Origin: a virus
Lineage: Duplodnaviria > Caudoviricetes
IMG/VR virus record: IMGVR_UViG_3300020365_000026
Coordinates: 1 to 48,623 of that record
DNA length: 48,623 nt
Reading direction: 5' to 3' (one strand)
Of the stretch, positions 1-26,351 are shown piece by piece. The notes under the pieces are model-generated. The model worked only from the letters and a program-made list of their open reading frames with translations, was not told the origin of the DNA and did not search any database. Position 1 is the first letter of the stretch. Each line of letters starts with the position of its first letter. Made by a program: the position numbers and the translations under genes.

Positions 1-17
1 TAAACTAAAACATACAT

Positions 18-410
18 TTATTCTAATTCACCTCGCTCTCGCATTTTTGCACGGATTTTTGTAGCACTAATATCATGTACTTCTTTTCCCAAGTCATGTT
101 CAGTAAATGTATAACCTACTCCACGACCCCAACTAATATTAACTATATTAGGCACTTTCATTATGATATATTCTTTTGAATATGTAAAGCCTTGGTTTTT
201 AAGTGCATCACAAATAGGCGTTCTAACATCATGGAAGTCCCAAGGATTATCTGTATTGCCCATTCCAGCATCAGCACCTTGTACATCTCTTACCATAATG
301 CATACCTGCCCATGCTCTGCTTGAATACGTTTGAACAATTCAGTATGTCCATCGTGCCAAGGTTGCCAACGCCCAAGCATTTGTGCAGTTGGTTTTTTCC
401 AATTAAACAT
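18..410 (-). CDS. HIGH-motif nucleotidyltransferase (cytidylyltransferase-like; possibly a minimal sulfate adenylyltransferase)
   Basis: GRWQPWHDGH (HxGH) near the N-terminus and ISATKIR (KMSKS-equivalent) at the C-terminus. ATG at 410 overlaps the end of the upstream kinase and is preferred over TTG at 422. Confidence 0.75.
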   Translation of the reverse strand: MFNWKKPTAQMLGRWQPWHDGHTELFKRIQAEHGQVCIMVRDVQGADAGMGNTDNPWDFHDVRTPICDALKNQGFTYSKEYIIMKVPNIVNISWGRGVGYTFTEHDLGKEVHDISATKIRAKMRERGELE

Positions 411-894
411 TTTCTTCCTCAAGTCTGTAAGCTACATAACCAATTGGTGTTGTATTTTGTTTTTTCATATAACGTTCAATAATAGGAACAAGTTGTGTAT
501 GTGTATCTTCAAACCATTTAGCAACATGATAATCTATGTCGTGTCTCTCAGGTGGTTCAAACATACGATTTGTATCTTCAAACCTTCCTTCTGGTATTGT
601 ATCCATCCATACAGTAAAGTCAGGTGCAAATTGTTCTCTTGCTTCTTTGGTAGGACAAACAAAATCTGCTACGGCAATTTTGCCTGCTTTTACAATGCCA
701 TCAGCTAGATGTCGCATACGATTTGCTTGTTTAATTCTACCTTCAAGACTAAAGTCCCATTTACTCATATCATGCCCTTCATACTGTTTGCGTACTTCGT
801 CTGCATTGATATGAACACCTCCTAATAGTTTTGCAAGTGGCTCAGCCAGCGTAGTCTTGCCACTACCAGGTAGTCCAAATATTAATATTTTCAT
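403..894 (-). CDS. cysC: adenylylsulfate (APS) kinase-like P-loop kinase
   Basis: GLPGSGKTT Walker A, NADEVR, DFSLEGR, DFVCP and FEPP motifs typical of APS kinases; GGAG RBS at 903-906. Confidence 0.75.
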   Translation of the reverse strand: MKILIFGLPGSGKTTLAEPLAKLLGGVHINADEVRKQYEGHDMSKWDFSLEGRIKQANRMRHLADGIVKAGKIAVADFVCPTKEAREQFAPDFTVWMDTIPEGRFEDTNRMFEPPERHDIDYHVAKWFEDTHTQLVPIIERYMKKQNTTPIGYVAYRLEEENV

Positions 895-921
895 TGATGT
901 TTCTCCGTTAAGTACATACTT

Positions 922-937
922 AATAAATATATTTATG
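922..937. promoter_or_regulatory. back-to-back T4-type late promoters (AATAAATA on + at 922-929; CATAAATA on - at 930-937)
   Basis: 14-bp perfect palindrome ATAAATATATTTAT at 923-936 between the divergent kinase and HAD genes; each half matches TATAAATA at 7 of 8 positions. Confidence 0.6.
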
Positions 938-1252
938 ATTTATTATATTGACATTGACGGCACTATTTGTGAAGATATTCCTATAAAAGGAAAAACTGAA
1001 GCACAATATAGACAGCAAATGCCTTACAAAGATAGAATTGATGTAATTAATAAACTTTATGATGATGGACATGAAATACACTATTGGACTGCCAGAGGTG
1101 CTACTAGAGGCATAGACTGGACAGACCTTACCAGAGAACAACTTGAGGAATGGGGTTGCAAGTATCACCAACTGCACATGGGCAAACCAAACTTTGATGT
1201 TTATGTTTGTGATAAAAGTTTTAACAGCGAACATTGGTTTACTCAAAATTAG
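935..1252 (+). CDS. small HAD-family phosphatase (capsule-biosynthesis phosphatase-like)
   Basis: DIDGT motif I, WTARG motif II and GKP..DVYVCDK motifs III/IV. Start reassigned to ATG 935 (MIYYIDIDGT) because the 857 start overlaps the divergent kinase. Confidence 0.8.
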   Translation: MIYYIDIDGTICEDIPIKGKTEAQYRQQMPYKDRIDVINKLYDDGHEIHYWTARGATRGIDWTDLTREQLEEWGCKYHQLHMGKPNFDVYVCDKSFNSEHWFTQN

Positions 1253-1730
1253 TGTGTACAAATTCTTCTTGTGGAAGTAAACTTATAATTCTTTCAAATA
1301 TATAAATGAATCCAACTTCATAATAACTCTTCATTAAACCTTTGGATTCTGGTTGTGGATATGCTACAACTGTTTCACACTCTTGGCATATTTGTCCTTG
1401 TGGATTGAATGTTATTGCCATAGTTTTACATTTTGCACGTTTGGCAACCAATGTATATGCAAGACTGCTTACAGTAGATCCACTGGCTGTTACAAATACT
1501 GCTAGGTCTTGTTGATCTATTTCTGGTATTAATAGGTCTTCACTGTGTGCTACGTCATATCCCAACTGGCTTAGACGTTGCATAAACATTTTAGTTGCAA
1601 GTCCTACACGCCCTTTAGCAATGAATACTATGCGTCTTGCACGTTTAATACTTGTTATTATAGTTGATTCATTTCGAGCATCTTGTAGTGCAGATACATA
1701 ACCAATCCATGTTTTATCGAATTCATTCAT
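1239..1730 (-). CDS. SIS-domain sugar-phosphate isomerase (6-phospho-3-hexuloisomerase-like)
   Basis: RIVFIAKGRVGL..KMFMQRL, DLAVFVTASGST, AKRAKCKTMAIT and C-terminal HTNFE (HxNLE in PHI/HxlB). Start ATG 1730 is coupled to the upstream stop. Confidence 0.75.
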   Translation of the reverse strand: MNEFDKTWIGYVSALQDARNESTIITSIKRARRIVFIAKGRVGLATKMFMQRLSQLGYDVAHSEDLLIPEIDQQDLAVFVTASGSTVSSLAYTLVAKRAKCKTMAITFNPQGQICQECETVVAYPQPESKGLMKSYYEVGFIYIFERIISLLPQEEFVHTNFE

Positions 1731-3114
1731 ATTTTTTAAGTTGCTCGATGCCCAATAAAAATAAAAATTTATTAAGGTCTTTGTCAACATTCAGAGGACT
1801 CATGCTGAGCCAAATACAACCAACACCCAATTCTATTTTGCGTTTGTGCTGATGATAAATTGGCGACAGCTGGAATTGATTCAAACGAATACTGTCCTCT
1901 TCGCTCGGCGATATTTTAATTATATAACCATTTGCATCTTGTGTCAAGTGATAATTTTCCAAATTAATATTGTGTAATCTCAAGCTGTGATAAAACTTGC
2001 ATATATCGTAAAATATGTCATTGACAACTCCTGGTCTATGGTCTATATAATGTATTTGATCTTCACCTACTATTATGTTGTCTACTACTAGATCACCATG
2101 ACATGCACCTACAAGACCTGTGCTAACCAAGTCCCAATCTATGTTCTCTACTGTTCTTGTGCAATCAATTTGTTGTCCATTTACTTGTACAGTGCCACTG
2201 AACTCAGGAAACTGTTGCACTATTTGATCAAAACGTTCCCATGTTTTGTCTTGCCATAAACTTCTATTTGTACATGCTATGTTGTTGTGTACGCTGAAAC
2301 GCCAAGTGTCTTGAAGATTACGAAATACACGTTCAAATTCGCCATTCATTGGATTGACTTTGCCATTTACTTTTGTATAACTTAGTCCGTGTTTAGTATG
2401 TTCAATTGGTTGTGGGTGCGGATAATTGTTGTTGGGTTGTATGTCAGGCTTGTTTACAAATAGTTTTACTATTCTATCATTTACACTGTATATTTCTTGT
2501 TGTGTTTTATCCAATACACTGAAGCTGGCATCCTGTTGTACTGTGCGATAACTTTCTACATTGCCTACATCAAACCAATCTACCAGTGCTTTGCTTTGTA
2601 AACTGTCCAATTGCTGTAGCAATATTAAATCATTTCTACTGATATCTGTAGACTGAAGTATATCATAATACTCCTGGCTGTCCTTAATAAAACTAATTCC
2701 GCTGTACACAACATCTTCACTGGTGTCGTAATATTGTTTATTATCAGGTGTACAAGTAAACCAAGTGTTTGTGTCTACTGTATCAACTATTGTACTCCAG
2801 TTGTCGCAAGCATTGTAGTACAATGGTTCATCAAATACATGACTGGGTATTTGCTTAAAGCTGGCAATTTGACTGCTATTCCAGTTTTCTATTTCTATAA
2901 ATTCTACATTTTTGCGATTGCTGTGTTGTATATACTCTTGTATATACTCAGCTTCATAACCAAGTGTAATATAAATTTTATCTATATCCGCAAAACTGTT
3001 GATAATATGATCTATTACTGCACAATCGCCTATGCGTATTAGTGCTTTGTGAAATTTTGTATATCCAACACTTCTTGTGCCAGGACCACTGCAAGGTATT
3101 AGGAGATTAGGCAT
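1723..3114 (-). CDS. sugar-phosphate nucleotidyltransferase fused to an APH/choline-kinase-like domain
   Basis: N-terminal LLIPCSGPGTRS...HKALIRIG (GxGTR..PK-like) and WFDVGN; C-terminal HGDLVVDNI..YID..YDICKFYHS phosphotransferase motifs. Confidence 0.75.
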   Translation of the reverse strand: MPNLLIPCSGPGTRSVGYTKFHKALIRIGDCAVIDHIINSFADIDKIYITLGYEAEYIQEYIQHSNRKNVEFIEIENWNSSQIASFKQIPSHVFDEPLYYNACDNWSTIVDTVDTNTWFTCTPDNKQYYDTSEDVVYSGISFIKDSQEYYDILQSTDISRNDLILLQQLDSLQSKALVDWFDVGNVESYRTVQQDASFSVLDKTQQEIYSVNDRIVKLFVNKPDIQPNNNYPHPQPIEHTKHGLSYTKVNGKVNPMNGEFERVFRNLQDTWRFSVHNNIACTNRSLWQDKTWERFDQIVQQFPEFSGTVQVNGQQIDCTRTVENIDWDLVSTGLVGACHGDLVVDNIIVGEDQIHYIDHRPGVVNDIFYDICKFYHSLRLHNINLENYHLTQDANGYIIKISPSEEDSIRLNQFQLSPIYHQHKRKIELGVGCIWLSMSPLNVDKDLNKFLFLLGIEQLKKYE

Positions 3115-3707
3115 GCAATATTAGCCTCATAGTTGTCATTGAATAACACTTTGCTTCCTGCTACCAATGTTATATTTGGATTATCTTTGTGTTCAAGCAC
3201 TGTACTGATCTTCACACCGCCATCTATTGTAACTGGTCTTTGTGTGTCTGACAGTGTAGAAAGGTCATAAAAACTATCTTGTACTTTTATTCCAGGATTA
3301 TATGCCATTAATAAAAATTCATCTACATTTAATCTATCGCAAATTCTATCAATTTGTGCTATTGTATGATAAGGCTTAAACGCTAGATGCAGTCTTTTAT
3401 CTCTGCTTAAAAAGTCAATGCACTGTTGCTCACTGTGAAAACTTTCGTAGTGTGCAAATATTTTATTTGCTTTTGTTTTTAGTATTGCGTCCCAGGCGGG
3501 ATTGTTACAGGCTATCATTGCATGTACATCAATGTGTTGTGCATAATCTATTTCATCTATAGCTTCAGGATGCACACCCAAACGTGGAACAAAGTGTCCG
3601 TCCATACAGTCCATGTGTACGCTCATGTTGTATTTTTCTTTTAGTCGTGTATAACTTTGATAGATATTGTAAGGTCTATCACAAATATAGCTTAAACTGA
3701 GTTGCAT
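3099..3707 (-). CDS. ribulose-phosphate 3-epimerase family protein (divergent)
   Basis: HMDCMDGHFVP, DVHAM, LLMAYNPG, IDGGV and VAGS motifs. Confidence 0.8.
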   Translation of the reverse strand: MQLSLSYICDRPYNIYQSYTRLKEKYNMSVHMDCMDGHFVPRLGVHPEAIDEIDYAQHIDVHAMIACNNPAWDAILKTKANKIFAHYESFHSEQQCIDFLSRDKRLHLAFKPYHTIAQIDRICDRLNVDEFLLMAYNPGIKVQDSFYDLSTLSDTQRPVTIDGGVKISTVLEHKDNPNITLVAGSKVLFNDNYEANIACLIS

Positions 3708-4426
3708 GTAAAATCCTCTATTATGTTGTCTTTGATGACAACTCCTGTTTTAATACCTTTTTTAAAATTTAATCTTTCTTCTTCCAAGTATAACGTTTCA
3801 CTGTATGCTCTAAGATCTTCATAGTTTTTGATGACTTCATGTTTGGGAGGACTTACTTCTGTATGACTTTTAAAGGTGATTAATACATTTGGGTCAGTCC
3901 AGCACAGTCCTATATTAACCCAATCTTGTTTAACATCTCTTGTAAGTGTATCATAATTAATCCATTTGTCCACTTTGAGATTGTAAATGTTATTTTTTAA
4001 TTTGAACGTTTCCCAATAAAAGCCTCTCCAGTAGTTTCTAAATTCATGCTCGCCGATGTAAATTGGATTTATGTCTTGTTCACCTGCATACCATTGATTC
4101 TTATGCCTACTCACACACATGCTTGCTGTTAATTCAAATATATTTTGTCGCCAACATACTATGGTATAGTCAACTGCACTGTTGAAATCATCTAGTAGTC
4201 CCATTTCTTTCATATCAACCAAATGAACTGTGTGATTTTTAATAACACATCTGGGTGTGTTTATAAATTCTTGCAAATGTTTGTGAAAGAATCTATTGTC
4301 TCTAAAATTACTGTTATAGGGTTCATTACCAAATTCAATATCTTGGTTGGTTGCATAGTATTGTCGAATCACGTTGAATAGGTATGTAGTTCCGCTCCGT
4401 GGTTGCCCAAGCAGATGTATTCTCAT
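3692..4426 (-). CDS. PAPS-dependent sulfotransferase family protein
   Basis: GQPRSGTTYL 5'-PSB loop, NEP, KNH, and RQN....AS 3'-PB-like motif; INYDTL. Confidence 0.7.
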   Translation of the reverse strand: MRIHLLGQPRSGTTYLFNVIRQYYATNQDIEFGNEPYNSNFRDNRFFHKHLQEFINTPRCVIKNHTVHLVDMKEMGLLDDFNSAVDYTIVCWRQNIFELTASMCVSRHKNQWYAGEQDINPIYIGEHEFRNYWRGFYWETFKLKNNIYNLKVDKWINYDTLTRDVKQDWVNIGLCWTDPNVLITFKSHTEVSPPKHEVIKNYEDLRAYSETLYLEEERLNFKKGIKTGVVIKDNIIEDFTCNSV

Positions 4427-5649
4427 AGCCAGCCCTCGTATTCCGGAATAATGTCTACAATACGTTGTTTCCTAATAGGATCATATGTACGAACTCTTGT
4501 TTTAAATTCTTCCCAATCTCTGCCTGGACTACCCAAGTCGTTGGTTTTTAAATGAGTAAGTATACCATCCCATGTTTTTTCGTGCATCAACTGTTCCCAA
4601 TGAGGTTGCCATTCTGTGTCTATTTTGTGTAAAAGTTTTTGTTTTAATTCAGCAGGCATATTGGTTACACATGCTCCGCCATCATAAACAATATTCAACC
4701 AAAGTTTGACTTCACCTTTGAATTCACGTTCATAATATTCAAAGCTACGCATTAGATCCCAAATACTATAGTTGCTAATACTGTAACTGATTTTAGGTCT
4801 AAATCCATGATCCCAAACAAAACGTTTGAGTGTGTCTTCAAACACATTCCATTTTCCTGGATACCTTGCATATTCAAAACAAGACTCTATACCATCAGCA
4901 CTGAATAAAAAATGCACCAATTTAAAATGAGGCCAAATGTTTTCTATTGCATGTTTAGGATAAACACTGCCATTTGTTGCATAGTTTAAAATAATATTTT
5001 GTGCATATCCTCTTTCAATTATCTTTTCTAAAAATTTAAATTGCTGTTTGATTAAAAAAGGTTCTCCTCCATATAAATCAATTTGATCAATGTGAGGTAA
5101 TATTGTTTCTAGTTGTTGCCAATATTCTTCATTTTCGTACCATTTAAAATTTGTATTTTGTTTGTTACTAAAGAAGTCTTTATAACCTGCTTGTCGCATG
5201 TCATCTACCCAACGACTGCTACTCCAAACATTACAAATTCTACAAGCAAGATTACAGAGGTTGCCCAGCTTTAGGTCTAAGTATCTATGTGTAAATCTAT
5301 TTTGCTCTATCATTAACCCTTGATTAGCATACTTTAGATTTTCTCTCATGCGTCTTGTTACATTACCATCTGCTTCTTCAATATAACATTCTTCACAGCC
5401 TCTAACAGGTTTATCCTCAAGTGCCGCTTGACGCATTGCACGAGCATCTTCACTGTCAACTATGTCTTGAATATTGTGTGTTGCCGCGTTAAAAGGTACA
5501 CCGTTTTCGTCTTTGTAAACAGTTCTACTTACACAACATGGTGCGACATGCCCAAACGATTTGATTTCATAATGTAGGAAAGGTAAAGCACAAAAATGTT
5601 TTGTTTTTAGCTTTCGTCCATCATTTGATAGAGTATAATCTTTTTTCAT
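4423..5649 (-). CDS. radical SAM protein with N-terminal twitch-type domain (rSAM-10)
   Basis: CALPF..PCC..CEEC N-terminal Cys set, CNLACRIC, GGEP. Confidence 0.9.
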   Translation of the reverse strand: MKKDYTLSNDGRKLKTKHFCALPFLHYEIKSFGHVAPCCVSRTVYKDENGVPFNAATHNIQDIVDSEDARAMRQAALEDKPVRGCEECYIEEADGNVTRRMRENLKYANQGLMIEQNRFTHRYLDLKLGNLCNLACRICNVWSSSRWVDDMRQAGYKDFFSNKQNTNFKWYENEEYWQQLETILPHIDQIDLYGGEPFLIKQQFKFLEKIIERGYAQNIILNYATNGSVYPKHAIENIWPHFKLVHFLFSADGIESCFEYARYPGKWNVFEDTLKRFVWDHGFRPKISYSISNYSIWDLMRSFEYYEREFKGEVKLWLNIVYDGGACVTNMPAELKQKLLHKIDTEWQPHWEQLMHEKTWDGILTHLKTNDLGSPGRDWEEFKTRVRTYDPIRKQRIVDIIPEYEGWL

Positions 5650-5692
5650 GTTAGAAGAGTTTCAAAACCTTGTTTCTCTACTAGGTATTATT

Positions 5693-5893
5693 TTACTTTG
5701 CTCTTGCTAGTACTTCCACACGAACCCTTGTTGCAACTAATTCTGCATCTGAGGTCCAATTGTCTTCGCCGTAAGCATTTCTCATGCTCTTCCAGACTTC
5801 TAATACACTAGCATCTGAGGAGTCTTTTCCTGCTCTGCTTAGGGCTTCCCAGATTACTTCATTTAGAGTTTTATCATTTTCGATACTTGCCAT
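5693..5893 (-). CDS. 66-aa hypothetical protein with dedicated promoter and RBS
   Basis: AAAGGAG RBS at 5901-5907, late promoter motif at 5919-5926; fills the gap between coupled genes. Confidence 0.75.
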   Translation of the reverse strand: MASIENDKTLNEVIWEALSRAGKDSSDASVLEVWKSMRNAYGEDNWTSDAELVATRVRVEVLARAK

Positions 5894-5918
5894 TTTAGTT
5901 CTCCTTTATAATATAGTG

Positions 5919-5926
5919 TATTTATG
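5919..5926 (-). promoter_or_regulatory. T4-type late promoter CATAAATA
   Basis: tatttatg on + strand, overlapping the stop of the 341-aa gene and upstream of a strong RBS. Confidence 0.6.
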
Positions 5927-6947
5927 GAGATACTAATTGTTTTTTACGCTCGTTATACCAATCTAACCAACTGTATTTCCAGGTTTTGCTTGCTAGTTGC
6001 ATATTGTTTTCATCATATAATGCAATGCCACATATATCATCATAGTTCCACAGTTCCAACATTGTTTCAATATTGTCTTCTGGCAAGTCGCTTGCCCTTC
6101 TGTTTAGATCTCCTAGGAAACACCAACCCAAGCTGAGTGTTTTATCTTTTATATCAATTTGCTTTTCCATACACCATTTTTTAAAATCGTCCCAATTTTC
6201 ACCAGGATGTCCGTGATTAAGGTTTACATCAAACTCTCCACTCAAATAACGAATACCACTGATATTACTGTTATAGATATCCTCATCTTCGTCATGCCAG
6301 GCTTCTCTGTGTGTTTTACCAGTCTGTGCATAGTGCATTCTTATTGCACCAAATGGTTGATGAATCATTTCAAAATGATCATAGTCTCCATCAGCTTCAA
6401 TTAAATCATGTCTTACAATAGGTTCCATGCATATAACAACACTGCTTGAACTTTTGTTATCTTCATATGCTTCAAGTCCTCTTAATTGACTTTCTATTTC
6501 ATGACACAACCAATTGAAATTGTTAACACTGAATTGATGTGACTTATCGAACTGATCCCAATATTCGCTGACGTTCCAAATCTGTCCTATTAGTATTTCA
6601 AAATGATGATGTATTTTGTTTAATTGATCTTGGTCAACTGTGTCTGCATCAAAATGTAAATCAATATTATAGTCTATTTTATTTTTCTTACAGTATTTGT
6701 TAACCTTGTCAATATGGAAGTTAAGTTCTTCACACATAAAAGGAATTGTACGTTCAATTTTAGTTTTAGGATATACCCAACCATGTAACATAAATTGCTT
6801 TTCTATTCTTGCATCTGTATCTAAGTAATCTTTTTGTAATGCTGATGCCCATTTCTGCGCCAGCGGAATATCTCTTATATCCCAAACAACATTTTTTGTT
6901 GTTTCATTATCTGTGTTTCTAAATGTAATTTCTAATTGCTTGTACAT
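5922..6947 (-). CDS. hypothetical protein, paralog of the adjacent gene (His/Glu motifs)
   Basis: 341-aa ORF coupled by TAATG at 6947; LNKIHHHFE, LCHEIE and HYAQTGKT motifs. Confidence 0.75.
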   Translation of the reverse strand: MYKQLEITFRNTDNETTKNVVWDIRDIPLAQKWASALQKDYLDTDARIEKQFMLHGWVYPKTKIERTIPFMCEELNFHIDKVNKYCKKNKIDYNIDLHFDADTVDQDQLNKIHHHFEILIGQIWNVSEYWDQFDKSHQFSVNNFNWLCHEIESQLRGLEAYEDNKSSSSVVICMEPIVRHDLIEADGDYDHFEMIHQPFGAIRMHYAQTGKTHREAWHDEDEDIYNSNISGIRYLSGEFDVNLNHGHPGENWDDFKKWCMEKQIDIKDKTLSLGWCFLGDLNRRASDLPEDNIETMLELWNYDDICGIALYDENNMQLASKTWKYSWLDWYNERKKQLVSP

Positions 6948-16262: not shown

Positions 16263-16573
16263 TAATCTTCCTCAACATCAACTGCACAGTTTTTCCAACA
16301 AATAGGATGTGCTTTTTCCTGGTCATTCATTAACATTTTAAAAAATTCTTTCCATTGTTTACTATACAATATTTCTTCAATAGAATCAACATTTTTTATG
16401 TTTAGTTCTTCATCCCACAAATTAGCATAGTTTTCTTGTTTGAGAGGCATATGATCTAACCAACAACAAGGCATCATAAATCCAGCACTTGTAAAATTAG
16501 GAAAGTTTCCTAAATCCTTGGCTTTGCTAAAATCAAATCTATGAGGCATACATTGTGGTTTAAGTTTCTTCAT
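16262..16573 (-). CDS. stand-alone SPASM/twitch Fe-S binding domain protein
   Basis: PQC..SAGFMMPCCWLD..SIEEIL..CWKNC; own GAGGAGG RBS at 16581-16587. Confidence 0.75.
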   Translation of the reverse strand: MKKLKPQCMPHRFDFSKAKDLGNFPNFTSAGFMMPCCWLDHMPLKQENYANLWDEELNIKNVDSIEEILYSKQWKEFFKMLMNDQEKAHPICWKNCAVDVEED

Positions 16574-17352: not shown

Positions 17353-18323
17353 GGCATAAACTCTCTATAATCAGTGCCATGTATTTGATCTAACAAAGTC
17401 ATTTGTTCAATAAACTTCTTGCGTAACCGAGGTTCATCTAATGCTTCAGGCTTCATCCAACTTGGACTGTATACAGGCTGATTGAAAACACAGTGGATAT
17501 CGTGTTGTTTGAAGAAATCTCTTATATCATCTAATAGATGATTGTTAAGTGCTTGTGGTGTGCATAAAATATAAATCTGTTCTATATTTTTCTTCATGTC
17601 TAAAATGTTGGGCCAAACTTGCTCCCAGTCTGCATTTTGTCTAAGATAGTTGAACAGAGGTCCAACACCGTCCGCACTTATTGTCACTGTTGTTGCTTTA
17701 AACTTGCGAAACTTTTCGTAGTATGCACTTAGATCCCAAGTGCCATTTGTTGTCAGTGCGAGGTTAATATTTTTTGCAAGATCTTTTTCAATCAAGTAAT
17801 CTATTATTTTCCTTACTTGTGGAATCATAATAGGTTCACCGCCTGTGAACTTTATTTCCATTGCATCATGTAATTCTGTGGTCAGGTCTTTTACTTCCTT
17901 GTGCCATTTCTTTCTATTTTGTTTTCCGTAATGAACACCTAGAGGCATATCAGGATTTTCTTTAACAATTTTTTCCCAAGTACTGCTACTGTGACCTCCA
18001 CATATCCTACAAGCAAGATTACATGTATTATTGATTTTTAGATCCCAAAATAATATCCCATCAGAATCTTCATAACCTTCTAATTTTTTATTATATGTTG
18101 TTCTATAGCTAGAGCCATCTCGTTCTTCAACAGTTTTACACCCATGACATCTATCAACCCAGCCGTGCTTACTTTGTTCATACATCTCCATATGTTTGCT
18201 ACGCCAATCATCTTCAAGAGAGTACTTTGGATATCCGTTACCTTTGTCCATTACACAACAAGGATATACACTGCCGTCTGGATCAATTGTTAGTCCATGT
18301 TTAAATAATTTGCAGTAACTCAT
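17349..18323 (-). CDS. radical SAM protein with N-terminal twitch-type domain (rSAM-2)
   Basis: YCKLF..PCC..CHGC, CNLACRIC, TGGEP; ATG 18323 forms an ATGA overlap with the upstream stop. Confidence 0.9.
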   Translation of the reverse strand: MSYCKLFKHGLTIDPDGSVYPCCVMDKGNGYPKYSLEDDWRSKHMEMYEQSKHGWVDRCHGCKTVEERDGSSYRTTYNKKLEGYEDSDGILFWDLKINNTCNLACRICGGHSSSTWEKIVKENPDMPLGVHYGKQNRKKWHKEVKDLTTELHDAMEIKFTGGEPIMIPQVRKIIDYLIEKDLAKNINLALTTNGTWDLSAYYEKFRKFKATTVTISADGVGPLFNYLRQNADWEQVWPNILDMKKNIEQIYILCTPQALNNHLLDDIRDFFKQHDIHCVFNQPVYSPSWMKPEALDEPRLRKKFIEQMTLLDQIHGTDYREFMP

Positions 18324-19444
18324 AAATCTAACACCTTGCAAAGTTCTGGCAAGTAATCTTGTATATCCAATTTTCTAAAATCGTTGGTGTATTTGATTGC
18401 ATCAAGAAAGTAATTAAAATTTTGTTCATTATATTCTGCATTTTTAAAATAGCTTTGTATACTTTTTGTATGCTGTCCAAAAGACAAACTGTTTAATATC
18501 CAATCCATGTGTTTAGTTTTAGTAGCATTGCTTATTACACTGTAATTGTAATGCGGTGGAAATATTGCATATGTATAACCAATTTGATTGTTCTCAAATC
18601 CATGTACATCAGTAAAATATTTCCAAACTTCGTTGGCATACATTATATTTAACACACTCATAGTAGCATGGTTTTTCAAAGATACATTAGGTCTACTTTT
18701 CCAATACGCTATAGTTTCTTCAACTTGATCCCATACGCCTAGTGTTCTTATATACTCAAACTTTTTACCTATCGCATCAATACTAAAACTTATCATGATA
18801 CTTTTAAACTGGTCGAACATTTTTTCAATATTAGGGTCTATTGTTTTGGTGCCATTGGTGCTATAAAAAAGTGTAATCTTACTAGGATCAGCTTCTCGAC
18901 AAACTCTTTCTAAAAATTCTAAATGCTCTGTTTCGTAAAAAGGTTCACCTCCAAGCACTTCTATGTATTGTAGTTTGTCTAGTGGTACATTAATTTTGTT
19001 TGAAAAATTTTTGATCTTAGCTTTATCATAAACACCAGGAAAATTATCTGTTTGTTTAAGTATGTATTGATGTTCCTTAAACCATCCAGTGCTACTATGT
19101 GCGCCACAAGTTCTACATGCTAAATTACACTTGTTTCCACTAAAAAGTGAAAGCTGTGTGAGCACTCCGTCTGGTTGTGAATCTAAATTAACATCAGCAT
19201 GTATTCTTTTACTTTTTTTACCGTTTGCTTCGTCTTGCCAGCATTTTTCACATGCACTATGTTCTTCACCATTGGCAAGTGCATGTCTGACTTCTTTTAT
19301 AAATGCTGAATTTAAATATCCTTTAACAGTACCAGGACGAGGGAATTTGTCCCAACCATTTTTAATAAAACAACAAGCACCCTTTGATCTTTGATCATAA
19401 CCATTTGAGGCTAGCTTGCAAGTTTTAGTCTGCGATGGTATCAT
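18320..19444 (-). CDS. radical SAM protein with N-terminal twitch-type domain (rSAM-1)
   Basis: TCKL..ACC..CEKCW, CNLACRTC, LGGEP. Confidence 0.9.
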   Translation of the reverse strand: MIPSQTKTCKLASNGYDQRSKGACCFIKNGWDKFPRPGTVKGYLNSAFIKEVRHALANGEEHSACEKCWQDEANGKKSKRIHADVNLDSQPDGVLTQLSLFSGNKCNLACRTCGAHSSTGWFKEHQYILKQTDNFPGVYDKAKIKNFSNKINVPLDKLQYIEVLGGEPFYETEHLEFLERVCREADPSKITLFYSTNGTKTIDPNIEKMFDQFKSIMISFSIDAIGKKFEYIRTLGVWDQVEETIAYWKSRPNVSLKNHATMSVLNIMYANEVWKYFTDVHGFENNQIGYTYAIFPPHYNYSVISNATKTKHMDWILNSLSFGQHTKSIQSYFKNAEYNEQNFNYFLDAIKYTNDFRKLDIQDYLPELCKVLDL

Positions 19445-20405
19445 CCACTTCGCCCTCTCTGACCATTGCTCCTAGTCTATGAGGATTTTTGTAAACTCTT
19501 TTAAAAAATCTACTGCCAGTCCAATCTAAATCACTTATCTCTAAATCTAGTTTTCCTCTGAGGTCTTCTCCTAGTTCTACAGTTTTAGCTTTAAGTTTAT
19601 TCCAATCCCATGTGACTCCAGTATTTACGCACAGTTGATCACCGCCTTCAAATTCAGGGAATAGTTCATCTCTAAAAAAGTTGCTGAGCCAATCAAAGTC
19701 TCTTACATTACGCCAGTCCCATTTGCGTCTTTCTACATTTGTCATGTGACAGCCAAGTCTTGCTCCGTAGATTGCCCACAAACCATTTGTAGCATCTTCT
19801 CCTATACTCATCCATACCAACAATCTTCTATAGTTGTCCTGATGAATACGTTTAAGGTCTTTAGGATCAACAACATCTCCTCCTTCTAAACCCATCTTGA
19901 CGCCTTCACGGAAACCTGCTCTCCATGCCTGTAGAGGACTACCATTGTTCATTACATCACAATAGACATTGTTCATTTGAACATATCTTATACTCCAACA
20001 AAAATCAACTTGATTTGCTTTATCACTTTCAGGAGCCGCTTCATGTGTACGCATTCTGTTGACAACATCCACGGGCCAACATTTTATTCCACCATTTCCA
20101 TATACCAAACCATTGACTGCATTTTTGCCTGCCCAACTTATCACATCTGTTTCTCTAATTCTATTCATGTCTAATTCAACATTGAAAAAATCATCTCTTA
20201 CAATGTTATCTGCATCAATAGTAATAAATCTATCAGTATCGCTCATTGCCGCCGCGGCTTTATGTGCGGCATCACTGCCCCATACTCCGTGACTGCGTTT
20301 TGCCCAAGGGCATTTATCTAATAGATCTGCATAGTTTTGTTCTGCATTTGGTTCATCGTAACTAATGTATACAATGTCAAATTCGTTGATGGGTACTTTT
20401 GTCAT
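19425..20405 (-). CDS. GT-A fold glycosyltransferase-like protein
   Basis: DIVYISYDE first strand, AHKAAA helix, FITIDADN (DxD), YGNGG and QAWRAGFREG motifs. Confidence 0.65.
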   Translation of the reverse strand: MTKVPINEFDIVYISYDEPNAEQNYADLLDKCPWAKRSHGVWGSDAAHKAAAAMSDTDRFITIDADNIVRDDFFNVELDMNRIRETDVISWAGKNAVNGLVYGNGGIKCWPVDVVNRMRTHEAAPESDKANQVDFCWSIRYVQMNNVYCDVMNNGSPLQAWRAGFREGVKMGLEGGDVVDPKDLKRIHQDNYRRLLVWMSIGEDATNGLWAIYGARLGCHMTNVERRKWDWRNVRDFDWLSNFFRDELFPEFEGGDQLCVNTGVTWDWNKLKAKTVELGEDLRGKLDLEISDLDWTGSRFFKRVYKNPHRLGAMVREGEVDDTIAD

Positions 20406-21403
20406 TGTGATTGCTCCGTGGTTGCATAGTCAAAGGTTAAATTTGCGCCGTCTTTGCATAAAAATCCGCAAGTAAGTAAATCAATATCAGTATTAATTTC
20501 TATTGTTTCTTGCCATCCTATCTCTTTAAGTGGGAGATTCAGCATTCCTACTAATCTATTAGGATTACGCGGTTCTGTCAAATATATTCCTATATCTTTA
20601 TATATCTTCTCGTCTTGTGGGTTGTTAAAATTGCTTTTTATGAATTGTTTGTCATCAATTTGTTTGATAGTAAAGTCACAAGCAATATCGTTGTTAACTG
20701 GTGTTGGTACACAAAAATTACGTCTTTTGGTATATCTAGTAGTATATTCAACTCCAGTAAAGTTTACTCTACGTTGCAATCTATAACTACTAAAAATTTT
20801 CCTAGTCATTATTGATATCTCAGTTAGATTACACAACCTTCTAAGAGGTGTTAAGTCATATATCAAATATCCCTCGTCGATTAATTCAGCAGGATCAATT
20901 GTTATTGTTTTGATTAGAAAGTTAGGATCATTGTTTTTTATTAGATATAGGTTAATAGGATCGTATGCTCCTGATTCAGGATTAACACTTACATTTCTAA
21001 AGAAACGTTTGCCTGTCATTCTATACAATGTATCTTGACTAAAGTTTACTTCCATCTTCCATTGATTATTGTACAAGAATATATTAACATCTGCTTGTGT
21101 TTTGCTTATAGGCACAATACTAAGTTTGTTTTCAGCTTCTTTGATCCTAATTACTGCTGATTTCTCAACAAGTTTAAGTTCACCATTGATGTCTACAATA
21201 GCATATTTTTTTGGGTCAACAAAGCCCATTAGCATTTGCCTTGCATCATCACTGTCTGTAATTAGATGCGGATGATGTATGAAATCTTTTTCTTTGTTGG
21301 TTACCGTGACGATATCACCTGTGTCTACATCATAGTAAACATACCATTTATGACTAGGCTTTTCTTTTTGTAGTTCTCTAAGTAACTTTGGTTCTGAAGA
21401 CAT
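20402..21403 (-). CDS. hypothetical protein with an internally duplicated domain
   Basis: 333-aa coupled ORF; INLYLIKNNDPNFLIKTITID resembles IGIYLTEPRNPNRLVGMLNLP. Confidence 0.7.
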   Translation of the reverse strand: MSSEPKLLRELQKEKPSHKWYVYYDVDTGDIVTVTNKEKDFIHHPHLITDSDDARQMLMGFVDPKKYAIVDINGELKLVEKSAVIRIKEAENKLSIVPISKTQADVNIFLYNNQWKMEVNFSQDTLYRMTGKRFFRNVSVNPESGAYDPINLYLIKNNDPNFLIKTITIDPAELIDEGYLIYDLTPLRRLCNLTEISIMTRKIFSSYRLQRRVNFTGVEYTTRYTKRRNFCVPTPVNNDIACDFTIKQIDDKQFIKSNFNNPQDEKIYKDIGIYLTEPRNPNRLVGMLNLPLKEIGWQETIEINTDIDLLTCGFLCKDGANLTFDYATTEQSQ

Positions 21404-22259
21404 CCAACACTTCGTCTGTTAAAAATAACTCATCACTATAGTGAATAATTCCACCACCGATTACGCTGTTTTCTATTTGTACTCTACCTGCATCTGTAAC
21501 CCAATAATTCAATGAATCAGTCCAATTTTGAGGTATCTCATCTGGATTTAAAAATACTCCATGACTGTTTAAATGTAAATCATACAAATTGTTTAATCTC
21601 GTAGAGACTTGTATTTCCATATCTAAAAAATGGGTAACTACATTGGCTAAGATATTTTTGTTAAAAGTTTCTGGTTTTTTATCTGTAAACAAATGTGAAT
21701 AAACATCTCTCCAATTTTGAAAAACTGGATCAGCCATTTTAAACCATTGTTCTGCTAGTACACTATTTTTATGAAAATAAATTAGGTTATTAAAAAGTTT
21801 TGGCAATCTGTACTGCACTTCAAATTCAAATCTCTTTGAATAATCTATTCTAAGATTTCTATAATTCATTGCGTCTGAAGGAATACTTATGTCACCATTT
21901 GATAATATATCCCATAATGTATCAACATCTACATTTGAGAATATCGTATCATAGTCAACGTAGATTGTTTCTTCATAAGGTGTACAATGATAAATCTGCC
22001 ACAAATTCATTCCATGAAATCCATCTTTGTGAGCACTGTTTCCATGAGGTAATTCTACTATATAATCAAATGCATGTTCATAGTAACTTTGCACATTTCC
22101 AGTTTTATCTTTATCAACTATCAATGTAACACTAGCATTAGGATCACATGATTTAATACTACAAGCCAAACCATAACAATATCTAATATTATCTTGGTCA
22201 GTATTGATACCTAGCGTAACAAATCCTCTTTTTGGATATTCTTTAGATTGCTTGGACAA
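21378..22259 (-). CDS. GT-A fold glycosyltransferase (GT8-like)
   Basis: RGFVTLG, LACSIK, TPYEETIYVDYD (DxD) and IIHY; start uncertain (TTG 22259 behind an AAGGA, or 22274). Confidence 0.65.
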   Translation of the reverse strand: MSKQSKEYPKRGFVTLGINTDQDNIRYCYGLACSIKSCDPNASVTLIVDKDKTGNVQSYYEHAFDYIVELPHGNSAHKDGFHGMNLWQIYHCTPYEETIYVDYDTIFSNVDVDTLWDILSNGDISIPSDAMNYRNLRIDYSKRFEFEVQYRLPKLFNNLIYFHKNSVLAEQWFKMADPVFQNWRDVYSHLFTDKKPETFNKNILANVVTHFLDMEIQVSTRLNNLYDLHLNSHGVFLNPDEIPQNWTDSLNYWVTDAGRVQIENSVIGGGIIHYSDELFLTDEVLDVFRTKVT

Positions 22260-23160
22260 TTTCCGTTCCTTCAAATTCTTTTATAAGTTCGGCATAATTT
22301 CTATCTAATGCACGTTTGTTCATTAAATGTAGGTTATCATTTGTGTGTTTACACAAAATATTCTTCCACTTTTCTGCTCTGTTGTGCTTGAGAAAAACTA
22401 GTTCACCAATACCATTTACTTTTGTAAGATCATCTTGTTGATCCATATTTAAAAGTGGTGTTCCTAAAAAGTCATGTACAAAGTTGTCATTGTTCATTCC
22501 GTTTAACATATGACTTGCAATACTAACACAAAAGTCTGTTCTAAACAATGCTTTTGGATATTGGTATAACAAGCTGTAGTATTCCCAATTATCTTTTACG
22601 TGAGCCCAAATATCAAAAAACAGTTTGCTTTCTTCACTGCGATCAAAATAGACTACTGTACTCCACCAATGATTTATACCAGCATTATTAAGTGTAACTT
22701 CATTTAGATATGGTATATCGCCGCCTAAATATTCAGCGTATCTATGCATACCTATAGATATATCTGTATCAAACAGATACTCATAAAAATTATTACAGAT
22801 TAAAAAATCTGTGTCAATTAACAATGTTTTTTCATATGGTGTAAGATTAAAAATTTGATGTTTATTACTATTATAAAATGGAGCATTAAATTCAGTCCAA
22901 GGACTGTCCATATGCCTTCTTGGATTCATTTCATGCTCTACATTATCAATAACAATATTGTCTATAGCACGGTTCAATAGTTTTTCATCAACTGATTGTT
23001 CTATCCAACCTTGTGTGCCTTCATCTGTAATCAATGTTACAGGAATTTGTTTCATATGATTCTTTGCATATAAAGCCGCAATAATACTAAATTTAGTATA
23101 ATCCAGCTGTTCGTTATTGTAAACGAACATGCAAATGCCGTTACCTTTTTTCTCAGACAT
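22243..23160 (-). CDS. GT-A fold glycosyltransferase (GT8-like)
   Basis: TPYEKTLLIDTD (DxD), WSTVVYF, FRTDFCVSIA, HLMNK; paralogous to the downstream gene. Confidence 0.7.
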   Translation of the reverse strand: MSEKKGNGICMFVYNNEQLDYTKFSIIAALYAKNHMKQIPVTLITDEGTQGWIEQSVDEKLLNRAIDNIVIDNVEHEMNPRRHMDSPWTEFNAPFYNSNKHQIFNLTPYEKTLLIDTDFLICNNFYEYLFDTDISIGMHRYAEYLGGDIPYLNEVTLNNAGINHWWSTVVYFDRSEESKLFFDIWAHVKDNWEYYSLLYQYPKALFRTDFCVSIASHMLNGMNNDNFVHDFLGTPLLNMDQQDDLTKVNGIGELVFLKHNRAEKWKNILCKHTNDNLHLMNKRALDRNYAELIKEFEGTEIVQAI

Positions 23161-23163
23161 AAA

Positions 23164-23511
23164 TCACCAATCCATCAAACTTTTGATGTTTCTCGACTTT
23201 TTAATTTTGTCTGATTGAACTTTGTATTCATTCATTGATTCGTTGTAAGCACTAAGCAGTGTATCTAAAAAATCCTTTAGGTCATCAATTACTATTGGAT
23301 TTTCTTTGGAATCAATAATTACGCTTTCTTTTTTATCACAATCGATTAGTGCTTTTACAAAACTTATAGTTTGTGAGTCTGCAAAAAACACACCCTTATT
23401 GTAATGTACAGTTTGTAAAACACGAATACGTTGTTTAAGTGTACGTTGTTGATTGCCTAATGTTATTCGATAATTCGCAAAGTCTAGTGCTTTTTCGAGT
23501 CTCTCGTCCAT
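23164..23511 (-). CDS. hypothetical protein, possibly tail-fibre-assembly chaperone-like
   Basis: AGGAG RBS at 23521-23525; 115 aa, mostly helical; first gene after the tail proteins. Confidence 0.65.
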   Translation of the reverse strand: MDERLEKALDFANYRITLGNQQRTLKQRIRVLQTVHYNKGVFFADSQTISFVKALIDCDKKESVIIDSKENPIVIDDLKDFLDTLLSAYNESMNEYKVQSDKIKKSRNIKSLMDW

Positions 23512-23538
23512 ACTGAGTTTCTCCTATAATTATGTACT

Positions 23539-23568
23539 ACTATAACTTATTTATGTGTGGGTTGTCAA
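23539..23568 (-). promoter_or_regulatory. sigma70-like promoter (TTGACA-N18-TATAGT) with a late promoter CATAAATA (23548-23555) nested in the spacer
   Basis: tgtcaa at 23563-23568, actata at 23539-23544 and tatttatg at 23548-23555 on the + strand, in the intergenic gap heading the GT/rSAM cluster. Confidence 0.55.
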
Positions 23569-23575
23569 CAGTTTT

Positions 23576-24802
23576 TTAACTATCATTTGGACTTGTAAAG
23601 TCGTCTATAATACTGAATGTTGGTGCTGGTGTTACGTCAAAGCTGGTTGTACCTATTGTAAGTGTATCAGGCATTAGATAGCTTATTGTTGGTGTAATGC
23701 TTCCGTCAATGAAGTTTGCATGACTTGTATCATCTAAAACCATCTTAAATTGTACACCTGCTCCGTTGTCTGTGTATTTTCCGTATAGTCTAAACTTCAA
23801 TGATTGATAGGTTGAATACAAGCTATAAGCACTTACATAAATGCCACTGTATCCGTAACCGTATCCATATCCATATCCGTAACCGCTTTTTTTGGCTGGA
23901 TCAGCCCAGTCTGGGTAATTACCTTTTCCTGTGATATAGCCGTATAATTGTTGTCCATATCCGTAACCATAGCCATATCCGTAACCATAGCCATAACCAT
24001 AACCATATCCGTAGCCTCCACCACGTTTACCAAGTGTTACTCCGCTTGAAGTAAACAGCAATCCTTCGTCAGCACTTCCGGCGTCACTGCCGTCTCCGTA
24101 GTATTCAGTCAAATCATAAAAACCTTTTCCTTCGCTGGTACCACTTGTTGTTGCCGCACTTTGAAATACATTGTCAAAAGTAAAATTTAAGACACCCATT
24201 TCGTTAATAACATCACTCCAGTTGTAGTAACCTGCTGTGCTACCACCGGTCATGTTTAAGCTAGCTCTTAGCTGTCCGCCTCCGTTGAAAAAATATCTTG
24301 CATCATTATATGAATTCCATAACCACTTATGTTCACCATTGAGTTGGTAATCCCATACTGTGGTTCTGCCATATCCTGCACTATTAGCCACAAACGCACT
24401 GGCATTAGTTGGGTCTACAGTTGCATGAGTATTATTTTGAAGTATATTATCAAATTTGGATCTTACTAGGTTAAGATCTTCTGCTCTAATAGGTGTGCCT
24501 GCGGCTATGGTTGTTCTATTTGCTGGTACAATAAACACAAGTACATGATCATTCACTGTGGTATGGTCAATACTAATATTTGCTCTTGTTACTAGTTCTT
24601 GTAATCTTTCTGCTGTAATTATTACGCCATTGGCAATATTATCATCAACATTGATTGCACCCCAACCAAATTTATGAGTAGCACCTCTGTTAACATCTGT
24701 TACAAGAGCTGTTGGATATTTGTCTCCAAAAACCTTGTTCACATCAAATGCTACTAGATTAAAATCAGTATTAAGTACTAGATCCCCAATGGACTGCGCC
24801 AT
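23576..24802 (-). CDS. tail/baseplate-associated structural protein with Gly-Tyr repeat insertion
   Basis: Abuts the fibre gene; ARYFFNGGGQLR-type motif of phage tail proteins; Gly/Thr/Asn-rich; (GY)10 and (GY)6 tracts. Confidence 0.7.
   Translation of the reverse strand: MAQSIGDLVLNTDFNLVAFDVNKVFGDKYPTALVTDVNRGATHKFGWGAINVDDNIANGVIITAERLQELVTRANISIDHTTVNDHVLVFIVPANRTTIAAGTPIRAEDLNLVRSKFDNILQNNTHATVDPTNASAFVANSAGYGRTTVWDYQLNGEHKWLWNSYNDARYFFNGGGQLRASLNMTGGSTAGYYNWSDVINEMGVLNFTFDNVFQSAATTSGTSEGKGFYDLTEYYGDGSDAGSADEGLLFTSSGVTLGKRGGGYGYGYGYGYGYGYGYGYGYGQQLYGYITGKGNYPDWADPAKKSGYGYGYGYGYGYSGIYVSAYSLYSTYQSLKFRLYGKYTDNGAGVQFKMVLDDTSHANFIDGSITPTISYLMPDTLTIGTTSFDVTPAPTFSIIDDFTSPNDS
23849..23884 (-). 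repeat. (Gly-Tyr)6 coding repeat
   Basis: Six GGN-TAY units with mixed codons. Confidence 0.95.
23957..24016 (-). repeat. (Gly-Tyr)10 coding repeat
   Basis: Ten GGN-TAY units using GGA/GGT/GGC and TAT/TAC; includes a duplicated 18-nt unit tccgtaaccatagccata. Confidence 0.95.
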
Positions 24803-25717: not shown

Positions 25718-25730
25718 TATCTTTTCCTCA

Positions 25731-26345: not shown

Positions 26346-26351
26346 TTAATG

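Follow-up and report, generated by a model that had tools for sequence, protein, structure and literature searches.

A tail-linked glycosyltransferase core and radical-SAM array in jumbo myophages, a candidate pathway for glycans on virion proteins

The virus record IMGVR_UViG_3300020365_000026, taken here in its entirety (48,623 nucleotides; "the window"), carries behind its tail region a long gene island in which a core of glycosyltransferase (GT) genes is followed by ten genes for radical S-adenosylmethionine (SAM) enzymes (rSAMs) and by genes for sugar-phosphate and tailoring enzymes (Table 1). The initial annotation had described about 23 kb of co-oriented, mostly overlapping genes forming one late-expressed pathway that modifies virion proteins. 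Every junction from 23160 down to 5922 does overlap; co-orientation fails at the HAD phosphatase gene, which is present but lies on the strand opposite to the operon and separates the kinase and nucleotidyltransferase genes (18-894) from the remaining island. A minus-strand open reading frame (ORF) at 920-1261 was rejected as the HAD gene, since the true frame is on the plus strand.

In the right half of the window lie genes for baseplate and structural proteins, with matches to PHROGs 10646, 10938, 11190, 7145 and 13211. A tblastn search with the baseplate wedge protein hit 93 of 50,697 phage records, including GAP32, CBB, PA5oct, Atu_ph07 and SCTP-2, and by its sequence the window is part of a jumbo myophage of that group. 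The earlier "T4-like" label is better replaced by a jumbo myophage of the RsoM2USA/XacN1/Atu_ph07 type. Related contigs of 125-192 kb are 35-52% complete by CheckV.

Genes of the island

The core consists of U115, GTa, GTb, U333 and GTc. None of the three GTs of the window has a Pfam, PHROG or NCBIfam match; by profile or model GTa and GTb have a GT8-like GT-A fold and GTc probably a GT-A fold, which agrees with their first reading as GTs. The AlphaFold2 model of GTa (predicted local distance difference test [pLDDT] 93.5) matched glycogenin in Foldseek (E 1e-7), and VIA aligned it with GlyE (Z 15.2, 225 residues, root mean square deviation 4.2), a Skp1 galactosyltransferase (14.8), glycogenin and LARGE1 (both 14.7). 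D107 of GTb is kept in at least 90% of its family, and 3 of 47 GTb members match Mannosyl_trans3. For GTc (pLDDT 88.9), Foldseek returned ThuS, SunS and TarP (E 4e-4 to 1e-3), while in VIA the GTs came top (Z 10.8-9.8, led by B4GALNT1 at 10.8), followed by nucleotidyltransferases of the IspD/MobA type (Z 9.1-9.5). The capsid GT of PBCV-1 (2p6w) is among the fold matches of both GTa (Z 11.8) and GTc (Z 8.3). Three relatives (L068, L071 and L078) have, farther along the array, GTc paralogs of 397-549 aa that carry two additional partial repeats at the N-terminus.

PDB sequence searches with the GTa, GTc, U115 and U333 profiles gave nothing useful. PHROG scans of U115 and U333 members gave weak matches only, mostly to families without names, and U333 had no informative match. 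The U115 family comprises 750 clusters at 50% identity; its nearest Pfam-bearing cluster in the ESM Atlas is DUF4376 (PF14301; score 0.89, 166/256 features), which is a lead only, and the DUF4376 hidden Markov model (HMM) found no match at E 0.5 in three U115 members. DUF4376 is labelled as a tail-fiber chaperone in Alteromonas phages V22 and A5 (PMC10579305).

CxxxCxxC marks ten ORFs in the stretch 4423-19444. Pfam Radical_SAM matches every one of them, nine above its cut-off, and eight pass the cut-off (170 bits) of the curated NCBIfam family NF033640 (N_Twi_rSAM), with 205-408 bits. The two non-members are rS9 (55 bits) and rS3 (no match). Each of the eight members has an N-terminal auxiliary twitch motif, C..C[CH]..CxxC, before CxxxCxxC; one regular expression finds this motif in 103 of 134 related phage proteins. 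The SPASM/twitch-like ORF probably is the split partner of rS3, behind which it also stands in L001-L003, L077 and L079. With the best pair 42% identical and most at 23-32%, the ten genes are, as judged from their sequences, old paralogs. Compared with loci L002, L003 and L006, each of 44 gene pairs gave a pN/pS of 0.00-0.41, and the expansion is therefore not a decaying one. Motifs and purifying selection thus point to radical-SAM function, with predicted [4Fe-4S] binding and SAM cleavage, and the count of ten enzymes, all intact and diverged, stands. Distant PDB matches of the rSAM profile include the sugar-acting BlsE and BtrN, both weak, as well as viperins and peptide maturases; 8vpo, SkfB and anSME are among the best. 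In the literature searched (most subscription papers, and the supplements of Iyer et al. 2021 and Nishimura et al. 2017, lie outside it), we found no characterized member or pathway of NF033640.

Among the other enzymes, the epimerase and the SIS isomerase can be named with confidence. The putative NTP-transferase/kinase has a match that is present but weak, and its C-terminal part may be read as kinase-like. The sulfotransferase label is weak too, with Sulfotransfer_3 matched below threshold in five of six homologs (best 2.4e-4) and no PDB match for the profile; the protein is probably a sulfotransferase. The SGNH label comes from the motif, HHalign to DUF6071-type proteins giving a probability of 5%. 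The APS-kinase-like protein passes the Pfam cut-off (35.7 versus 21.1), but AAA_33 scores better and the protein falls far under the NCBIfam ApsK cut-offs. U341 and U310 are distant paralogs; they share His/Glu motifs placed on helices, which hints at a di-metal helical-bundle enzyme, and their homologs also adjoin rSAM genes in two Bdellovibrionota loci (L113 and L137). Whether all of this is one pathway is uncertain at the low end, where the APS-kinase-like pair has its own promoter. In the related contig G003 an APS-kinase-like gene is found away from the island, with thyA and DHFR on either side. Genes for a SAM synthetase, GTP cyclohydrolase I and a TctA transporter (L087 3871-4962 and 11339-12031; L086 9553-11004) also lie outside the G003 island, and the synthetase would suit a heavy SAM demand.

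Table 1. Features of the island and its borders, in window coordinates
Feature	Position	Strand	Remarks
408-aa tail-region protein, variable (Gly-Tyr)n insertion	23576..24802	-	candidate virion protein, candidate glycan acceptor
Composite operon promoter	23539..23568	-	TTGACA-N18-TATAGT overlapping ATAAATA (23554-23548)
U115, 115-aa core protein	23164..23511	-	DUF4376 lead only
GTa, GT8-like GT-A glycosyltransferase	22243..23160	-	invariant D116-x-D118, H278
GTb, GT8-like paralog of GTa	21378..22274	-	profile matches glycogenin, E 1.3e-6
U333, core protein	20402..21403	-	184-450 aa in relatives
GTc, small GT-A domain + helical C-terminal domain	19425..20405	-	invariant D64-x-D66
rS1, N-twitch radical SAM	18320..19444	-	NF033640, 241 bits
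rS2, N-twitch radical SAM	17349..18341	-	NF033640, 205.5 bits; probable ATG start 18320
rS3, radical SAM without own auxiliary domain	16570..17352	-	Pfam Radical_SAM, 29.9 bits
Stand-alone 103-aa SPASM/twitch-like Fe-S domain	16262..16573	-	Pfam SPASM E 2e-4
SGNH-like protein, GDS motif	15393..16262	-	weak label
rS4, N-twitch radical SAM	13988..15400	-	NF033640, 337 bits; ortholog type adjoining GTc in phages and bacteria
rS5, N-twitch radical SAM	12636..13991	-	NF033640, 291 bits
rS6, N-twitch radical SAM	11363..12652	-	NF033640, 408 bits
rS7, N-twitch radical SAM	10134..11366	-	NF033640, 382 bits
rS8, N-twitch radical SAM	8936..10150	-	NF033640, 335 bits
rS9, radical SAM, C-terminal Cys cluster motif	7770..8939	-	Pfam Radical_SAM, 31 bits
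U310, paralog of U341	6947..7879	-	HHalign probability 70%, E 4e-5
U341	5922..6947	-	22 homologs, none with a Pfam domain
66-aa ORF	5693..5893	-	downstream of late-type motif 5925-5919
rS10, N-twitch radical SAM	4423..5649	-	NF033640, 300 bits
Candidate sulfotransferase, P-x-R-S-G-T-T-Y loop	3692..4426	-	sub-cut-off Sulfotransfer_3; loop motif conserved in alignment
Ribulose-phosphate 3-epimerase-family enzyme	3099..3707	-	Pfam E 9e-20
Sugar-phosphate nucleotidyltransferase-like N-terminus	1723..3114	-	NTP_transf_3 E 0.0014; phrog_21938 on C-terminal part
SIS-domain sugar-phosphate isomerase	1239..1790	-	Pfam SIS 5e-10; HxlB-like 2e-19
Small HAD phosphatase, D-x-D-G-T	about 935..1252	+	HAD_PNKP E 0.004
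Back-to-back late-type motifs	923..936	both	+ copy at 923 serves HAD gene, - copy serves kinase gene
APS-kinase-like P-loop kinase	403..894	-	Pfam APS_kinase 1e-8, AAA_33 2e-11; phrog_10255 N-terminal half
HIGH-type nucleotidyltransferase	18..422	-	C-terminal half of phrog_10255

Conservation of the core and its neighbors

Relatives were collected from IMG/VR in a scan with GTc (157 relatives, the best 80 kept as loci) and from GTDB in a scan with an rS4 alignment (176 relatives, the best 80 giving 74 loci, with neighbors classed by cluster label within 10 kb). An exact-word scan with rS6 had found no relative in GTDB genomes or plasmids; the rS4 alignment later did. Across the phage loci the order U115-GTa-GTb-X-GTc is intact in 77/80, the other three ending at contig edges, and X is U333 in 75 of the 77. 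Homologs of the 408-aa tail-region protein or its 304-aa neighbor lie no more than three genes upstream of the core in 76/77 intact loci. The linkage of GT and rSAM genes to tail genes, which the initial annotation had proposed as a check, is thus seen in these loci and in Ralstonia phage RsoM2USA as well, and GT genes are linked to structural genes as in phage virion glycosylation systems.

The 408-aa protein had been called the last tail gene, and a virion role is suggested by its position. Its homologs stand ahead of the core in most loci, and in RsoM2USA ORF355 is such a homolog fused to the N-terminus of the 304-aa neighbor. Its profile found nothing useful against PDB sequences. The variable insertion contains two (Gly-Tyr)n runs, whose length and presence vary widely across 41 homologs.

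Downstream of the core the gene content changes quickly from locus to locus. A CxxxCxxC gene follows GTc immediately in 52/75 loci, and at least one is present in 52 of the 53 loci with at least 8 kb of downstream sequence (range 0-10). A Pfam scan of this variable slot covered 124 of 132 cluster representatives (the 8 omitted have window homologs) and matched 54 of them. The matches include UDP-glucose dehydrogenase and cytidylyltransferase-cupin proteins (13 loci each), NAD epimerases, DegT aminotransferases and a hexapeptide acetyltransferase, together with TylF, FkbM and other methyltransferases, carbamoyltransferases, DUF6071/GDSL proteins and B12 rSAM enzymes. On contig G003 the co-oriented island extends over about 55 kb and 64 ORFs; NF033640 matches (E <=0.001) number 17 on this contig, 9 on G001, 15 on G002 and 10 on G004. 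A simple hydropathy test counted fewer than three hydrophobic segments in every one of 459 distinct downstream proteins, with one or two in 21 of them (control TctA, 10), and none of the island proteins of the window reaches the hydrophobicity threshold. The enzymes therefore probably encounter their acceptor in the cytoplasm.

A minimal version of the module exists in culture. GTa, GTc and U115 each match 1 of the 50,697 phage records, RsoM2USA (MG752970.1, L166), in which ORF354-350 form the core (identities 35%, 27%, 27%, weak and 46%) behind the tail sheath, the tube and ORF355. After the core come an rS4 ortholog (ORF349, 45%), a GTc paralog and a gene reading like a methyltransferase. 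A second locus has an rS5 ortholog (ORF202, 46%, same clade) among three SGNH-like readings and a carbamoyltransferase. The authors list the core genes as hypothetical (PMC8504454). RsoM2USA also has genes for a dCMP hydroxymethylase (ORF10) and for a T4-type beta-glucosyltransferase (ORF2), some 210 kb away from the core, and its DNA is therefore probably glucosylated at hydroxymethylcytosine. The genes lie at 7607-8443 and 1890-3020, respectively, of MG752970.1, the former annotated as thymidylate synthase by the authors. DNA glucosylation in RsoM2USA thus has its own genes, and yet it supplies a handle for further GTs.

Outside phages, 58 of the 74 GTDB loci are titled as Bdellovibrionota lineages, and rS4 is 38-46% identical to its bacterial homologs. 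Neighbors of these homologs in cellular genomes include a GT in 27/74 loci, a carbamoyltransferase in 7/74, and a flagellin or a pilin-like gene in 3/74 each. In a Bacteriovoracaceae locus (L151), four GT2s, a dehydratase and a PseC-like aminotransferase surround the GTc-rS4 pair, with flagellin close by. The flagellin link, counted in 3/74 loci without a formal control, is no more than suggestive. This bacterial context supports glycan chemistry for the rSAM family, in both polysaccharide and protein-glycan settings, and does not settle the acceptor. In a FastTree tree of rS4 and rS5 (54 phage sequences, a random draw of 30 from 92 bacterial ones, and 6 references), phage and bacterial sequences were intermixed with weak deep support, and thus no donor can be named.

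Several further arrangements were seen among the bacterial loci. A Bdellovibrio sp. metagenome-assembled genome (MAG) has an 834-aa tandem rSAM fusion between two flagellin genes (L130 9989-12493), and a similar rSAM directly follows two flagellins in L156. Tandem arrays of 4-8 N-twitch rSAM genes occur in Bdellovibrionales and Bacteriovoracaceae MAGs (L140, L144, L149 and L118). In L136 and L153 the phage core is present together with genes of the tail region, and in L160 there is a GTc-rSAM-GTc block; the three contigs, binned as Fischerella, Neomarinimicrobiota and Crocinitomicaceae, are probably phage DNA placed in the wrong bins.

Promoters and timing

The motif ATAAATA has six minus-strand copies in the window (48237, 41577, 26358, 23554, 5925 and 936), each 12-43 nt ahead of a start codon; such zones make up 4.8% of the window (p about 1e-8, for a motif picked after looking), and three of the six copies precede genes outside the island. 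Across loci, 71/130 distinct ATAAATA sites are intergenic, compared with 1.1% of bases. On these counts ATAAATA is a genuine late-type motif. The late promoters first proposed at 23548, 5919 and 922-937 do coincide with ATAAATA-type copies, but the exact T4 consensus TATAAATA is absent at all three sites. Group 2 jumbo phages encode sigma factors and gp33 (PMC7824862).

A strict sigma-70 consensus was found in 45/54 distinct U115 upstream regions (background 1.3%), and the late motif in 29/54, always alongside the sigma-70 motif (background 1.2%). Ahead of three tail-region genes the sigma-70 motif occurs in 0/64, 0/38 and 3/62 regions. Over the whole window a sigma-70 scan gives chance numbers (91 versus 91.6), and only the cross-locus comparison at U115 is informative. 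RsoM2USA has only relaxed late-type TAAATA motifs upstream of the core. Since the sigma-70 motif is present at U115 and missing before the tail-region genes, the operon is probably a unit of its own that is turned on before the structural genes, with late expression retained in part of the lineage. "Late-expressed," as first proposed, thus holds in part; the operon is not purely late.

Contigs near-identical to the window were found in one metatranscriptome (X1), covering 29/30 bins of 1-20000 and 30/30 of 18001-38000 at low, fairly even depth, while two others (X2 and X3) had almost nothing matching. Such contigs show neither timing nor strand and may reflect DNA carry-over, and we do not count them as proof of expression.

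Two side observations concern promoters elsewhere. A perfect sigma-70 consensus (12/12) lies at 7955-7927 on the minus strand, within the 3' end of rS9 and upstream of U310, and could be an internal promoter. A second cytidylyltransferase-like gene (47618-48211, minus strand) heads the structural operon downstream of a late motif.

What the island may make, and known systems

We consider it likely that the island encodes a pathway, linked to the tail region, that builds and tailors a glycan. This is well supported by the GT-A folds, the fixed position in 76/77 loci, the nucleotide-sugar enzymes of the slot and the glycan-locus neighbors in bacteria. That the fixed GT core and the fast-changing array of rSAM and sugar-tailoring enzymes together build an unusual glycan in the cytoplasm, which is attached to proteins of the phage particle, is in our view about evenly balanced between right and wrong. 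The proposal of a glycan on virion proteins therefore stands as far as a glycan pathway linked to the tail region; the acceptor itself is not shown, and a virion protein is the best single guess.

We imagine that the sigma-70-type promoter, overlapped by the late motif in about half of the relatives, would let the enzymes accumulate before and during assembly. In the window, the isomerase, epimerase, nucleotidyltransferase and HAD phosphatase may supply rare nucleotide sugars, as may the UDP-glucose dehydrogenases, epimerases and aminotransferases of relatives. GTa, GTb and GTc would then prime and extend a glycan on a fiber or other surface protein, with U115, on its DUF4376 lead only, as a possible fiber-chaperone-like adaptor. 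BtrN, NeoN and BlsE are sugar-acting rSAM enzymes, and by analogy the N-twitch rSAMs might oxidize, epimerize, decarboxylate or deoxygenate single sugars by radical hydrogen abstraction; SGNH proteins and sulfo-, carbamoyl- and methyltransferases could add substituents. Each phage lineage would thereby have a coat of its own.

A number of observations weigh against attachment to virion proteins, or limit what the genomic context can say. Product, acceptor and activity are predictions from the genes, and the 408-aa protein has no family match in Pfam, PHROG or NCBIfam. The 80 phage loci, all fetched via GTc and related to each other, are not 80 independent observations, so that synteny reflects inheritance as well as function. 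Pfam left 70/124 slot representatives unmatched, and the slot also has a halogenase, TauD, 2-oxoglutarate oxygenases, nitroreductases, AMP-binding proteins, ThyA and DHFR. Among the bacterial loci, 37/74 are without any glycan-type neighbor label, several standing among housekeeping genes, and a polysaccharide-export context (ABC-2 permease, 9/74) is commoner than flagellin (3/74). Only RsoM2USA, among the 93 records with the same wedge protein, has GTa, GTc or U115, and the core is therefore dispensable for building this type of virion; virion proteomics of RsoM2USA covered only 10 bands, with no modification reported in the accessible text (PMC8504454). In favor of virion proteins, Schiff staining marks at least two virion glycoproteins of Xanthomonas phage XacN1 (Yoshikawa et al. 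2018, PMC5852040), which PMC8504454 groups in one clade with RsoM2USA, and this related jumbo myophage also has GTs and a carbamoyltransferase in the same tail-adjacent slot, directly after gp25, gp6 and a large structural protein. Its GTs, however, gave no HMM match to the U115, GTa, GTb, U333 or GTc profiles, no N-twitch rSAM was matched in XacN1, and the link between its glycans and these enzymes is not an experimental one in the accessible text of PMC5852040; its glycoproteins are thus an analogy and not a test. Finally, more of the upstream regions keep the sigma-70 motif than keep the late motif (45 versus 29 of 54), a pattern that would suit a host-surface or DNA target equally, so that both of these alternatives stay alive.

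If the target were the host surface, the island would edit O-antigen, capsule, or flagellar or pilin glycans from the cytoplasm, through nucleotide-sugar pools or lipid-linked units, blocking superinfection or grazing during a long latency. The hypervariable gene content and the conserved promoter agree with this, bacterial homologs adjoin ABC-2 exporters (9 loci) and GT1s (12 loci), and the latent period of RsoM2USA is 270 min (PMC8504454); moreover, Iyer et al. 2021 read cyanophage GT clusters in this way (PMC7824862, section 3.4.10), and chloroviruses make host-surface polysaccharides early in infection (PMC4691112). We nonetheless think it rather unlikely. The 459 downstream proteins include no flippase, polymerase, lipid-carrier GT or membrane acyltransferase, and neither they nor the window island include a polytopic membrane protein of the kind used in serotype conversion (GtrABC, Oac, Wzy). 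The core keeps its place behind tail-region genes both in marine phages and in a Ralstonia phage from soil, although their hosts probably do not share the same surface glycans, and the late motif is kept in 29/54 regions.

Hypermodification of phage DNA, in which the GTs would sugar a base handle and the rSAMs tailor it for escape from restriction and CRISPR, fits the early-type promoter, and a handle exists in at least one carrier, given the dCMP hydroxymethylase of RsoM2USA. Virus-encoded GTs that place diverse glycans on DNA were reportedly described by Pyle et al. in 2024, which counts for this alternative. T4-type DNA glucosyltransferases have the GT-B fold; the island GTs are GT-A, and the window island has no thymidylate-synthase-family gene or other handle-forming gene. 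In RsoM2USA the hydroxymethylase has a T4-type beta-glucosyltransferase of its own nearby. G001-G003 have only canonical ThyA and G004 has none (on contigs 35-52% complete), and five records had no Pfam TGT match. Given also that the core sits with structural and not replication genes and that the same GTc-rS4 pair occurs in bacterial glycan loci, we give DNA modification little credence. As for DNA glycosylation linked to TET/JBP dioxygenases, a search for these found nothing in five records, four of them partial, and was silent in control genomes too.

Two other explanations seem to us similarly improbable. The rSAMs could act apart from the GTs, as maturases like those of ribosomally synthesized and posttranslationally modified peptides, on virion proteins (for example, the Gly-Tyr run) or on the 66-aa ORF. 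SPASM/twitch rSAMs often act on peptides, and 8vpo, SkfB and anSME are of interest here, as are the rSAM fusion between two flagellin genes and the striking (GY)n insert just upstream of the core. But a GY run (>=3) is missing in L003, which keeps orthologs of rS1-rS9, and in many other array-bearing loci, and the run was rejected as a required rSAM substrate in general; no conserved precursor peptide was found (ORFs under 70 aa lie outside the call set of the loci), and in phages and bacteria alike the rSAM genes are interleaved with those for nucleotide-sugar enzymes. Alternatively, the island might make a free small molecule (a glycoside, nucleoside analog or signal) or modify cytoplasmic host proteins, its tail position being a recombination hot spot. 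The halogenase, TauD, AMP-binding proteins, and carbamoyl- and C-methyltransferases of relatives do resemble secondary-metabolite clusters, BlsE and viperins are among the structural matches, and Iyer et al. offered this option for one cyanophage cluster (PMC7824862). An exporter is lacking, however, the five-gene core is rigid and holds one position in 76/77 loci, and the top matches of the GT8-like enzymes (GlyE, Skp1 galactosyltransferase, glycogenin and LARGE1) extend protein-linked glycans; we see only a slim chance for it.

If glycans on virion proteins are indeed the product, NF033640 would be a large family of radical enzymes that edit sugars by new chemistry, a function would be at hand for an rSAM family common to phages and predatory bacteria, and many new radical sugar reactions could be expected. 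Particle glycans would be a hypervariable trait with effects on adsorption, grazing, stability or the binding of decoys, and a main axis of marine phage diversification. One can envision, tentatively and with more doubt than belief, a vast, almost uncultured jumbo-phage lineage that coats its particles with lineage-specific, radical-edited glycans by means of dedicated priming machinery, a tail-fiber-chaperone-like adaptor included, and of islands reaching 55 kb and 17 rSAM-like genes, exchanged with glycan loci of the predatory Bdellovibrionota. The minimal version in cultured RsoM2USA and the small, soluble enzymes make the question testable.

How does the island compare with known systems? 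No paper on a tail-linked GT/rSAM module was found in the literature searched, in agreement with the earlier statement that no phage pathway of this composition has been characterized. Mycobacteriophages with virion glycosylation are small siphophages with few GTs. Their GTs decorate capsid and tail-tube proteins (Freeman et al. 2023, as cited in PMC12619734 and PMC12582341), a likeness to what is proposed here; the difference is that the accessible text of the two citing papers mentions no nucleotide-sugar pathway or rSAM array. The tblastn search with GTa and GTc, which reached only RsoM2USA, was not a direct comparison with the mycobacteriophage GTs. Mimivirus and chloroviruses have autonomous glycosylation clusters, that of Mimivirus being lost in a fiberless mutant (Piacente et al. 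2015, PMC4691112), in which virus-encoded GTs are likewise clustered with nucleotide-sugar and tailoring enzymes, but these are giant viruses of eukaryotes and the accessible text describes no rSAM array.

Closer in gene content are the cyanophage "lipopolysaccharide biosynthesis" GT clusters of group 2 jumbo phages (Iyer et al. 2021, PMC7824862), with similarly variable epimerases, cupins, nucleotidyltransferases, GTs, carbamoyl- and methyltransferases and HAD enzymes. They differ in that they are predicted to modify the host surface and, in the accessible text, have no fixed tail-linked core or rSAM array. The marine T4-like genome TARA_ERS488813_N000010 has 12 radical-SAM genes (Nishimura et al. 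2017, PMC5332604) and is likened to the island by rSAM count alone; there, the enzymes are read as Fe-S auxiliary metabolic genes, and "glycosyl" is absent from the main text. With the NF033640 family itself the island shares the cut-off score and the N-terminal twitch Cys motif of 8 of its 10 enzymes, whereas here eight paralogs of at most 42% identity stand downstream of a GT core. Virion glycosylation is known in few phages and in giant viruses; a phage pathway with a putative nucleotide-sugar supply of its own and a large rSAM array was not found described in the literature searched. The feature is real and widespread, and probably a variant of virus-encoded glycosylation that leans unusually on one rSAM family.

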